A stretch of DNA of 64,000 bases. It comes from an uncultured virus (IMG/VR IMGVR_UViG_3300025769_000004). Taxonomy: Duplodnaviria > Heunggongvirae > Uroviricota > Caudoviricetes > Crassvirales. The stretch is from the IMG/VR virus record IMGVR_UViG_3300025769_000004; one strand, written 5' to 3'. Made by a program: the position numbers and the translations under genes. Under the pieces are notes generated by a model. That model was not told the origin of the DNA. It made no database searches and worked only from the letters and a program-made list of their open reading frames with translations. Shown here in pieces: positions 44,929-49,338 of the stretch (the stretch's first letter is position 1; every line of letters starts with the position of its first letter).

Positions 44929-44935
44929 ATTTATA

Positions 44936-45379
44936 TTATCTATTAGTAATCGTATTTAGTTTGTAACATAATTGCTTAATCTTGTTATACTGCAACTCTG
45001 ATATTTCAAAGTTGTTAAGCGAGCGAGTTAAATAACGCTCTGCAATATCTTTGTCAACATCTAAGTAGTCGATGTAAGTTTTACCTATGTGCTCGAACAA
45101 ATTGTCATTACCTACATAAGAGGTTGAGCATCCATCGTACTGATATTTAGTTTTACGTTGACTTGAGCCTTTAGTAATAGCTCTGAGTGTACCGAAACCG
45201 GCACGTTTTGTTAGTTTTGATGCTTGATCTGCATCACTACGTGACATTACTTGAATAGTATTGCCAGTTTTGTGGTTTATAGTATCGATACAGCCGAGTT
45301 TTTCTTCTGTAGAGCACTCGATGCAAGTCGTGTAGCCGAGTGCTAGTCTTTGTTTTGGTATATTGTGCGTACATTTCAT
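44936..45379 (-). CDS. Protein with TraR/DksA-like zinc-finger N-terminus
   Basis: MKC..NIPKQRLALGYTTCIEC. Confidence 0.5.
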   Translation of the reverse strand: MKCTHNIPKQRLALGYTTCIECSTEEKLGCIDTINHKTGNTIQVMSRSDADQASKLTKRAGFGTLRAITKGSSQRKTKYQYDGCSTSYVGNDNLFEHIGKTYIDYLDVDKDIAERYLTRSLNNFEISELQYNKIKQLCYKLNTITNR

Positions 45380-45410
45380 ATATATATATATTATCTTATA
45401 GTAATCGTAT

Positions 45411-45767
45411 TTAGTTTGTAATATTTTTCATTACTTCATATAGTATATCTCCATGGTGTTCATGATAGAATTCAAACCATTCATCTTCAAACTGCTCATA
45501 ACCTGCTTCAGTTAAGTAGTTTTGTGATTGGAATACGTAGTGATTACCCATCTCGGTGCATACTTTTTCAAATATTACATCAGACAAATGTCTGGTTATC
45601 TTATCTACTATTAGTATTTTAGCTTCTTCGACAGGATCTAGTGGACATCTATTTTCTTTCATTTCTTCTGAATTATTCGCTTTGTCAGCCCATTGTTCAT
45701 AATCATTATTACCTGTGTAATACTCTTTAGTTTGCCTTATTTCATTCATTGTTCTTTCCTTCGCCAT
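45411..45767 (-). CDS. Hypothetical early protein
   Basis: 118 aa; stop codon lies inside a promoter repeat. Confidence 0.55.
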   Translation of the reverse strand: MAKERTMNEIRQTKEYYTGNNDYEQWADKANNSEEMKENRCPLDPVEEAKILIVDKITRHLSDVIFEKVCTEMGNHYVFQSQNYLTEAGYEQFEDEWFEFYHEHHGDILYEVMKNITN

Positions 45768-45870
45768 AATTCTTGTGTTTAGTTTTACGTGTATATTTCT
45801 TTTTATTCTTTTCTACTGAAGGCTTCATAGCATCGTATATCTCCTTCATTGTTACTTTTATTATTTTCAT
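45742..45870 (-). CDS. 42-aa basic ArfA-like peptide (not in ORF track)
   Basis: MKIIKVTMKEIYDAMKPSVEKNKKKYTRKTKHKNYGEGKNNE. Confidence 0.55.
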   Translation of the reverse strand: MKIIKVTMKEIYDAMKPSVEKNKKKYTRKTKHKNYGEGKNNE

Positions 45871-45872
45871 AG

Positions 45873-45986
45873 AGCGAGAGAGAGGATTCGAACCTCTCAT
45901 GTCTAGAACAGTTCAACTAACCACATAAGATTGCTGATGTGTTAAAGGTATCATCTTAATACCAATTAGTTCTACCTGACCTCGCT
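45873..45986 (-). ncRNA. tRNA-like structured RNA (acceptor-like stem plus T arm, non-canonical interior)
   Basis: AGCGAGG/TCTCGCT terminal stem, GAGAGG-TTCGAAT-CCTCTC T arm, TAGAAC/GTTCTA stem enclosing two further hairpins. Confidence 0.65.
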
Positions 45987-46134
45987 GTCCAAGTTGAGCC
46001 GTCACTCAACCCCACTGTTTTTCTCCGGTGTAAAGTGTTTGGAGTCGTGGTTTAATTAAAGAAGTGTAAGAGTAGTTTCGCCGTCCAGACTCTATTAGTG
46101 GTTTGCATTTAAGCCGGTCACTTCTTAATTTGTT

Positions 46135-46278
46135 TTAATTTACTACAAAAGTTAAACCTTTGTAATTGAACCATGAGTTACACTCTTCAGGTATGCTGTC
46201 TATAGTGTAACCTTTTACTTTCTTGCCGTCTAGCTTGATCACTGATCTGTTGCTAGGATAAAATTTAATTGTTTTCAT
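46135..46278 (-). CDS. Small early protein (not in ORF track)
   Basis: 47 aa MKTIKFYPSNRSVIKLDGKKV...; ATG 3 nt after a promoter repeat. Confidence 0.6.
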   Translation of the reverse strand: MKTIKFYPSNRSVIKLDGKKVKGYTIDSIPEECNSWFNYKGLTFVVN

Positions 46279-46317
46279 ATATATATTATCTATTAGTATT
46301 TGTATTTAGTTTGTTAT

Positions 46318-47860: not shown

Positions 47861-48061
47861 ATTATATTATCTTTTACTTATTGTATTTAGTTTGTGATAT
47901 ATGCCCATAGTATTGTTACTACTGCGCATAGTATGAAGTATAACATTACTTCGCCACCTGTTGTTGAAAAATCAGTTTTCTTTTTCATTTTATTATTTCT
48001 CTTATTATATCGATTAGTATTATAGTAGTAATTGTTAATGGTGCTATTGATATTAGTAAAA

Positions 48062-49272: not shown

Positions 49273-49338
49273 TGTTATTAGTTTTTATTAGTTATATTAT
49301 ATTATCTATTGATAGTCGTATTTACATTGTAATTATTA

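Follow-up and report, generated by a model that had tools for sequence, protein, structure and literature searches.

A conserved tRNA mimic of phages with a slot for exchangeable inserts

Phages T4 and T5 encode small RNAs (T4 RnaC and RnaD, T5 RNA1-3) that PMC3014915, where it treats them, lists as stable RNAs with unknown roles. T4 RnaC (species 1) and T5 RNA1 and RNA2 resemble the element described here in being small stable RNAs in tRNA clusters, with a T arm beside a terminal stem and non-canonical inner arms; unlike it, they have no exchangeable slot or abutting AUG annotated. The position in a tRNA array holds for some members of one branch of our family (type B, below), and R1, a model trained on family members, gives no match to the T4 and T5 stable RNAs (L307, L308) at E 0.1 or better. 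The T4 rnaD sequence extracted by its annotation (NC_000866; L307:1554-1672) begins with a T-arm-like hairpin, and the coordinates of that record may be offset.

Three other systems are close in form. Plant mitochondrial t-elements, which lie inside polycistronic transcripts, are tRNA-like but non-canonical in structure and have a conserved T arm; they guide RNase Z and RNase P to the cuts that create mRNA ends, and they acquire CCA (PMC1920247). The phage element likewise combines a T arm and an acceptor stem within a polycistronic unit and ends at an mRNA start, but t-elements are organellar, degenerate and carry no cargo, whereas the phage family is under purifying selection and its processing is a prediction. 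YrlA, which occurs in phages too, is a tRNA mimic of ~100 nt that has a T arm, a D arm, a Ro60-binding module and an internal acceptor-like stem, and it is encoded beside Ro60 (PMC4201824). Finally, mycobacteriophage DS6A encodes a tmRNA consisting of the tRNA-like domain only (TLD-only tmRNA; described in PMC4131195 and PMC11915505).

The stretch that we analysed, hereafter the window, comprises the first 64 kb (64,000 nucleotides) of a virus record that is complete, at 66,589 nt, and bears terminal repeats. The phage encodes a terminase, portal, primase/helicase, ribonucleotide reductase, sigma factor and GroEL. Its terminase matches 87 annotated phage records, one of them an unclassified phage at 67% identity and the rest phages of Flavobacterium, Maribacter, Cellulophaga and Tenacibaculum at 33-48%. 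Because these terminase relatives, our one source of host information, are mostly flavobacterial phages, the host is probably a flavobacterium. The element sits in the early small-gene region, ~300 nt downstream of a promoter-like repeat and a 47-aa ORF (Table 1). This repeat (family D3) has five copies, each preceding a small ORF (44934-44962, 45389-45417, 46284-46312, 47865-47893 and 49300-49328, all on the - strand); the next copy downstream of the RNA is 45389-45417, and the 42-aa and then 118-aa ORFs directly downstream of the element both lack a promoter-like repeat of their own. The element is the sole T-loop hairpin or tRNA-shaped sequence in the 66.6-kb genome.

Table 1. Features of the element and its surroundings (positions in the window) and of related RNAs at other loci
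Feature	Position	Strand	Remarks
Promoter-like repeat, early region (putative promoter)	46284..46312	-	family D3; nearest copy upstream of the RNA
47-aa ORF with WFNYKG motif, constant upstream neighbour	46135..46278	-	marker for finding relatives without RNA bias
Optional leader module closed by AAGAAGUG/CACUUCUU	46059..46126	-	two inner pairs co-change; five loci (L013, L322, L330, L345, L396)
Optional leader module CCAC...GUGG, inner stem CUCC/GGAG	46012..46050	-	CUUC/GAAG and CUGC/GCAG in relatives
Leader hairpin with GACG tetraloop	45993..46010	-	at least 6 bp in 116/119 contexts; several pair types per position
Acceptor-like stem, 5' strand AGCGAG(G)	45980..45986	-	6/6 pairs with double changes; RNase P cut predicted before 45986 or 45985
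Unpaired linker UCAGGU, conserved GG 45976-45975	45974..45979	-	register of tmRNA D-loop GG; T-loop docking predicted
Exchangeable insert ('cargo')	45913..45973	-	slot edges from contig joints 45912>45974
Conserved AC and mini-hairpin UGUU-CUA-GACA, at anticodon-arm position	45900..45912	-	conserved among relatives
T arm GAGAGG-UUCGAAU-CCUCUC	45880..45898	-	sequence and covariation
Acceptor 3' strand U-CUCGCU and tail C-U	45871..45879	-	12-bp register: U73 = 45873, C74 = 45872; RNase Z cut predicted
42-aa basic peptide, DUF7230-like, phrog_6310	45742..45870	-	AUG 2 nt past the stem
TLD-only tmRNAs (G3·U70, A73)	L182:4477-4557, L185:4691-4773, L186:4377-4458, L189:1537-1618		above RF00023 cut-off
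TLD-only tmRNAs, continued	L237:969-1049, L253:1627-1707, L301:203-285 (-); L175:3792-3867		L175 weaker
Minimal 39-44-nt RNAs	L147:1244-1287, L156, L163, L165, L149, L175:1234-1273, L180, L181, L183, L184

Fold and conserved plan of the element

The first-pass annotation described a 114-nt tRNA mimic with a canonical T loop but no normal D or anticodon arm. All of the letters it quoted are present at 45986-45873 on the - strand, and the description holds: there is a 7-bp acceptor-like stem and a 6-bp T stem with the loop UUCGAAU, and, as was also stated, CCA is not encoded, the tail reading C-U-AUG. Set against tRNA (RF00005), the element has the acceptor stem and a T arm with a UUCRA loop; the D stem-loop is missing, with an unpaired linker and a variable insert there, and a 3-5-bp hairpin with a 3-4-nt loop stands in for the canonical 5-bp anticodon stem and 7-nt loop. 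ARAGORN makes no call in the window, so that the element is not scored as an ordinary tRNA, nor does it make one at the element in relatives L001-L014. Rfam returns nothing at the gathering score, the best match by E-value being 17 nt of T arm to tmRNA (E 3.9, 6.4 bits). The 114-nt strand folds with an energy of -33.9 kcal/mol (z -2.8), and 4/200 shuffles do equally well.

Relatives were found by several routes. An exact T-arm pattern matched 14 IMG/VR loci whose flanks are identical in kind and whose middles differ. Searching with the upstream 47-aa protein, which is blind to the RNA, gave 50 loci; 24 of these score at least 51.7 bits with R1, the next match being a tRNA-Met at 28.6, and many of the 24 belonged to the R1 training set, with two pairs identical. 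The protein-based search also exposed the divergent type B, in which a GACG-loop hairpin lies inside the RNA at the anticodon position; in type A this hairpin is relocated to the leader. A type B pattern matched 120 loci, and parsing all loci gave 74 rows, ~7 of them tRNAs or mis-parsed. The type A pattern has 119 listed matches in metagenomes, every one a member; they represent 108 distinct contexts, and the whole collection is estimated to contain ~280. Every count out of 119 in this paper is among these listed matches. A loose 5' pattern was discarded as a family finder, with mostly chance matches and members in only 5/121 loci.

The family appears confined to phages. Among 185,579 prokaryote genomes in GTDB there are no type A matches and a single type B match, on a 716-nt MAG contig, which is likely viral carry-over. 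With blastn, the window region and a type B member give short chance matches or none against 50,697 annotated phages, and R1 finds a member in none of five annotated relatives (MW202828, elemoE, Panino, phi13:2 and phi38:1), where its three weak matches (23-28 bits) are ordinary tRNAs; no cultured carrier emerged from these annotated-phage and relative searches. Our literature search, which had most subscription journals outside its reach, found no description of this RNA family. Five short family motifs are absent from six supplements of PMC10690425 (Fremin 2023), and the family may be among the 10,006 candidates of that study.

Comparison of relatives reveals extensive covariation. In 44 hand-picked members, all six acceptor pairs and three of the five T-stem pairs show double changes; pairing holds in 99.1% of cells compared to 38-54% in slid registers, and 0/500 shuffles reach 99.1%. 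Given that these 44 rows were selected partly by pairing, we repeated the test with the 5' strand placed by the linker motif alone, starting from 106 distinct matches and removing 42 ordinary tRNAs, 3 truncated sequences and 7 without an anchor. Among the remaining 54, 34 pair at 6/6 positions versus 2.5% at random positions, many of the 20 non-pairing cases being wrong anchors or non-members. Covariation across types A and B is also seen in the mini-hairpin. These compensatory changes bear out the claim that the element is a tRNA mimic and neither an ordinary nor a decayed tRNA.

The conserved order of parts is acceptor, 3-4 nt, GG, slot, (G)AC, mini-hairpin, T arm, acceptor and N-C-(U/A). 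The stack of acceptor and T stems is 11, 12 or 13 bp long, and position -1 pairs with 73 in several lineages. U73 and C74 are present in 119/119 contexts, and the element shares a tail N73-C-(U/A)-A with genuine tRNA genes and TLD-only tmRNA genes carried by these phages. Type A is almost invariant, at 97.1% identity over 53 nt compared to 89.9% for the adjacent ORF (27 contexts), a figure inflated by pattern selection, though loci found through the protein look alike nonetheless.

One part of the original description was not borne out. The 'long stem' UAGAAC/GUUCUA has its 5' strand in the exchangeable insert, and at least 5/6 of its pairs are possible in just 26/119 contexts. What is conserved instead is the mini-hairpin UGUU-CUA-GACA (111/119; UGUC-CUA-GGCA in the other 8/119), together with an insert that AACUAA/UUAGUU closes. 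For the element in the window, the energies of the two folds (-32.2 and -31.2) differ by no more than 1 kcal/mol. We rejected two further readings of the fold: in an alternative pairing GGACAG/CUGUUC the 5' strand varies (GGAC, GGAA, GGAU, GGUC) while its partner is unchanged, and CUGACGAG, read as a hammerhead, covaries as a hairpin with CCGACGGG.

The short loop of the mini-hairpin bears on the suggestion, made in the first-pass annotation, that the RNA is a decoy for anticodon nucleases. The overall tRNA shape and early location would suit such a role, but the arm that takes the anticodon position ends in a loop of 3-4 nt (CUA, GACG or UGCA) and nucleases of the PrrC type read the anticodon stem-loop (PMC3014915), so we regard this as highly improbable.

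An exchangeable insert slot

The most unusual feature of the element, absent from the first-pass annotation, is an exchangeable insert slot between GGU (45974) and AC (45912). The 119 contexts hold 68 distinct inserts of 3-73 nt, falling into ~30 classes by rough 7-mer clustering, and in 20 contexts the insert is 8 nt or shorter. The same slot edges flank other inserts in contigs from three RNA-library runs. A closing stem of at least 4 bp can be drawn for 43/61 inserts compared to 21% of shuffled sequences. Engineered tRNA-scaffold expression systems carry a foreign folded RNA in a tRNA frame, inserted in the anticodon stem; in contrast, the phage cassette is natural and its insert lies in the D-loop. 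Together with the covariation, these data indicate that the element is real, conserved and under selection, a tRNA mimic specific to phages that has an exchangeable insert slot.

The insert in the window has a closing stem, AACUAA/UUAGUU, and two hairpins with complementary loops, UAAGAU (45958-45953) and AUCUUA (45931-45926). Variants read UAAGAU/AUCUUG and UAUGAU/AUCAUA, so that complementarity is kept through one double change and one G·U, thin evidence which suggests that the two loops may form a kissing loop. This insert recurs in the slot of L003, L337, L382 and L394, and it is also found free, ahead of other tRNA-like elements, in L453, L455 and L461; the other distinct matches in that 35-locus scan are due to chance. 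A second module occurs both in the slot and free, and one module is common to type A, type B, TLD-only tmRNA and free leaders. Searched by E-value, Rfam offers no family for the window insert or for those at 20 loci chosen by hand, whose cargos differ; at these loci the sole match (sucC, E 0.5-3.9) lies outside the element. An assignment of the insert to an Rfam CRISPR repeat or riboswitch is therefore unsupported.

Inserts, leaders and downstream genes reassort freely, and 7/20 insert classes are paired with at least two downstream ORF families. This reassortment, like the near invariance of the type A sequence, is what we would expect of a recombination cassette, or a decayed tRNA, whose conserved sequence mainly provides homology for shuffling early genes. 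Such a cassette would not, however, account for compensatory changes in all of the acceptor pairs, in the mini-hairpin and in the T stem, and there is one copy per genome here. We consider this reading very improbable, and as a sole explanation it is strongly disfavoured.

Several related arrangements were seen at other loci. L257 has two type B copies with different inserts 80 nt apart (1488-1590 and 1671-1766, - strand), and in L247 the insert is duplicated in tandem. A scaffold with alanine identity, GGGCGUG/CACGUCC-A, carries variable inserts in L243, L251, L255, L265, L433, L475 and L216:1243-1369 (-); the L475 insert is also present in 'clamp' stems of L155, L160 and L161. Of the modules that precede the element (Table 1), the outermost has no Rfam match and possibly forms a CCGG/CUGG pseudoknot.

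Relation to tmRNA and other tRNA-like RNAs

The layout of the element was initially likened to the tRNA-like domain of tmRNA or to bacterial Y RNAs. The first likeness stands in part: most insert-free members share the register of the D-loop, but G3·U70, the GAC/GGA junction and the tag frame are missing. G3·U70 is completely conserved in tmRNA (PMC3985003), yet it occurs in 1/119 contexts; in the 12-bp register the window has G3-C70 and U73, as against the alanine identity set G3·U70 and A73. Without G3·U70 or a tag frame, the proposal that this is a rescue RNA fails, and the statement that it is too short for a tmRNA is correct: at 114 nt it has no tag frame or pseudoknots, and it fails the Rfam score. 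The Y RNA reading is contradicted by topology, since in YrlA the acceptor-like stem is internal (PMC4201824) whereas here the RNA's own 5' and 3' ends form the acceptor beside the T arm; there is no Rfam match to Y RNA, and the phage genome (0/1) has no TROVE/Ro60 gene. Thus the element is neither a tmRNA, a Y RNA nor a tRNA.

Sister phages carry 81-83-nt tmRNA genes without a message domain, seven of which pass the Rfam RF00023 cut-off (Table 1). These genes, a marine counterpart of the DS6A form, were missed by ARAGORN where tested. The element shares with them the acceptor and T arm, the lack of a D stem and a short helix at the anticodon position; it differs in its 6-bp T stem and the insert slot in the D-loop, and Rfam matches its 17-nt T arm only. 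Insert-free linkers are 13 nt long and read N4-GG-N4-GAC in 20/25 cases, and the window linker is interrupted by a 61-nt insert. Because most insert-free linkers share the register of the sister-phage TLD-only tmRNAs, the scaffold likely descends from the tRNA-like domain of tmRNA.

This kinship raises the possibility of a decoy derived from tmRNA, one that would bind SmpB and dampen trans-translation in the manner of the DS6A TLD-only tmRNA, with the ArfA-like peptide encoded downstream (see below) acting on stalled ribosomes. Consistent with such a decoy, besides the linker register, TLD-only tmRNAs that pass the Rfam cut-off are found close to type B members, tmRNA is inhibited by a TLD-like RNA 'whether or not chargeable' (PMC4131195), and ArfA is the best natural match in the PDB to the profile of the peptide family (E 0.035-0.057). 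However, the insert occupies the loop that SmpB contacts (PMC3985003), the GAC/GGA pairing and connector of RF00023 are missing in types A and B, and the peptide lacks the GKGS of ArfA and is one of five neighbour families. We consider this SmpB-decoy reading unlikely.

Alternatively, the RNA, perhaps charged with glycine, could act as a decoy that draws off enzymes recognising the acceptor end or elbow of tRNA and so shields host or phage tRNAs from tRNA-targeting defence. In the 12-bp register, 92/119 contexts have G1-C72, C2-G71, G3-C70 and U73, the bacterial glycine acceptor set (PMC9976931), and the location in the early small-gene region would also fit. Against this, the anticodon determinants C35/C36 are absent, U72 is found in 26/119 contexts, the acceptors of type B and of L170 differ, and the pairing of -1 with 73 in several lineages favours the 13-bp register, in which the glycine set vanishes. 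This kind of decoy likewise seems unlikely to us.

Other loci contain minimal RNAs of 39-44 nt in which a 10-11-nt loop containing GG links the acceptor stem to a T arm, followed by an AC tail (Table 1). Some lie directly after an early repeat, and they are among the smallest natural mimics of the tRNA elbow.

The abutting AUG and predicted processing

In 62/119 contexts an AUG lies 2 nt past the acceptor stem and opens an ORF from one of five unrelated families, whose labels were assigned in this analysis: 28 zinc-finger-like, 27 DUF7230-like plus 2 truncated, 2 membrane-peptide, 2 DKExL and 1 NLYSW. These AUGs are real starts, since the same N-termini follow ordinary leaders elsewhere. In the predicted precursor, all but one of the 13 positions between -15 and -3 have a pairing probability of at least 0.91, so the start codon would be buried unless the RNA is cut. 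In F. johnsoniae, structure near the start codon lowers initiation and most transcripts are leadered, 87% of them by more than 10 nt (PMC6847099).

The other 57/119 contexts have no abutting AUG, and because the element is equally conserved there, making leaderless mRNA is not its sole job. A promoter-like repeat lies within 70 nt in 29/54 non-abutting contexts, and type B members lie 5-6 nt ahead of a tRNA or tmRNA gene in 4/10 loci measured, which argues that the RNA is also kept for itself. The first-pass annotation had proposed a processing signal that releases a leaderless mRNA for an ArfA-like ORF. The abutting AUG favours the first part of this proposal; the link to ArfA is not specific, since ArfA-like ORFs make up 27/62 of the abutting ORFs, plus 2 truncated ones with like starts, and four other families abut too.

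The likeness of the ORF to ArfA is modest but probably real and is limited to the basic segment of ArfA, which lies in the mRNA channel. Against E. coli ArfA, 14/30 residues are identical, and 3/5000 full shuffles and 32/5000 block shuffles score as well; the C-terminal half of the ORF resembles ArfA residues 28-50, with the GKGS of the KKGKGSYxRK segment absent. When ArfA is matched to the profile of the peptide family, the hhalign probability is 39%. The ArfA family model has no match in Pfam at E <=1 (with 40- and 52-aa frames holding the match region) or in NCBIfam, and the ORF scores 26.6 bits against DUF7230, for which the Pfam cut-off is 27. We conclude that the ORF is ArfA-like in one segment and is not tied to the tRNA-like RNA; the DUF7230 peptide family may be a phage ribosome-binding peptide.

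Starting from the observed structure, slot, context and abutting AUG, we propose that host tRNA enzymes excise the cassette, so that a stable RNA bearing the insert is released and an mRNA gains a new start; we put the chances of this proposal at about even. The early transcript would start at the upstream D3 repeat, and the T loop would dock on the GG of the linker to build a tRNA elbow. Host RNase P would then cut 5' of 45986/45985 and host RNase Z 3' of 45873/45872, CCA would be added to the released RNA, and cleavage past the discriminator would leave the AUG, now accessible, with a leader of 1-2 nt for leaderless translation of the next gene. The features read by RNase P, RNase Z and CCA-adding enzymes are all conserved: the 11-13-bp stack of acceptor and T stems, the T loop and the GG. 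The predicted cut is blurred, because the length of the helix varies (11, 12 or 13 bp) and -1 often pairs with 73.

We also looked at eight RNA-library runs as assembled contigs. Contigs of X9 (45820-46024) and X13 (45769-45904) bridge the element and the ORF, indicating that uncut RNA (or DNA) is present. The first base of one X2 contig is the A of the AUG (45870), and X2 cover is absent over 45871-46004; as this comes from one study and from contigs only, we do not count it as evidence.

The same place in sister phages is taken by a different stem that ends at an AUG (13 of 30 loci listed), by a promoter (L163) or by nothing. Because a stem unrelated to tRNA also abuts the AUG there, tRNA enzymes may not be required. 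Indeed, the element might never be excised, serving instead as a folded leader that acts in cis, either by blocking or through recruitment of a tRNA-binding factor, to set the translation or stability of the gene downstream. The AUG at +2, the unrelated stem in its place and the contigs that run from element into ORF would all be expected of such a leader. But 57/119 type A contexts have no abutting AUG, type B members stand in tRNA arrays without an adjoining gene, and the tRNA-type tail and T loop are retained throughout; purely cis action is therefore rather unlikely in our judgement. A different structured RNA with an insert slot of its own follows the 47-aa ORF in L142, L143, L145, L148, L150, L151, L155, L158, L160, L161, L165, L167 and L176; it ends 0-2 nt before an AUG in 11/13 of these loci, and farther away in L145 and L176.

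If excision does take place, the likeliest use of the released RNA would be to present short RNA modules, in protected form, to the host or phage proteins that they bind. In its fullest form, which is speculative and which we consider rather unlikely, this would be a natural tRNA-scaffold display: a tRNA-like domain taken over from tmRNA would be matured by host tRNA enzymes into a stable RNA, and dozens of folded modules would be swapped in its D-loop as a fast-evolving library of decoys or aptamers against host proteins, while the same cut would make the next early gene leaderless.

For decades, tRNA-like stable RNAs of phages such as T4 RnaC and T5 RNA1/2 have had no known role. The present family is abundant in marine metagenomes by the estimate from one pattern, and its natural variants (insert-free forms, ~30 insert classes, members with and without an abutting AUG, and sisters with alanine identity) make the scaffold, the cargo and the processing separately testable. 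Should excision prove true, tRNA punctuation would extend to the formation of bacteriophage mRNA starts in normally leadered hosts, and phages would be shuffling RNA modules in the way that small anti-host proteins are shuffled.
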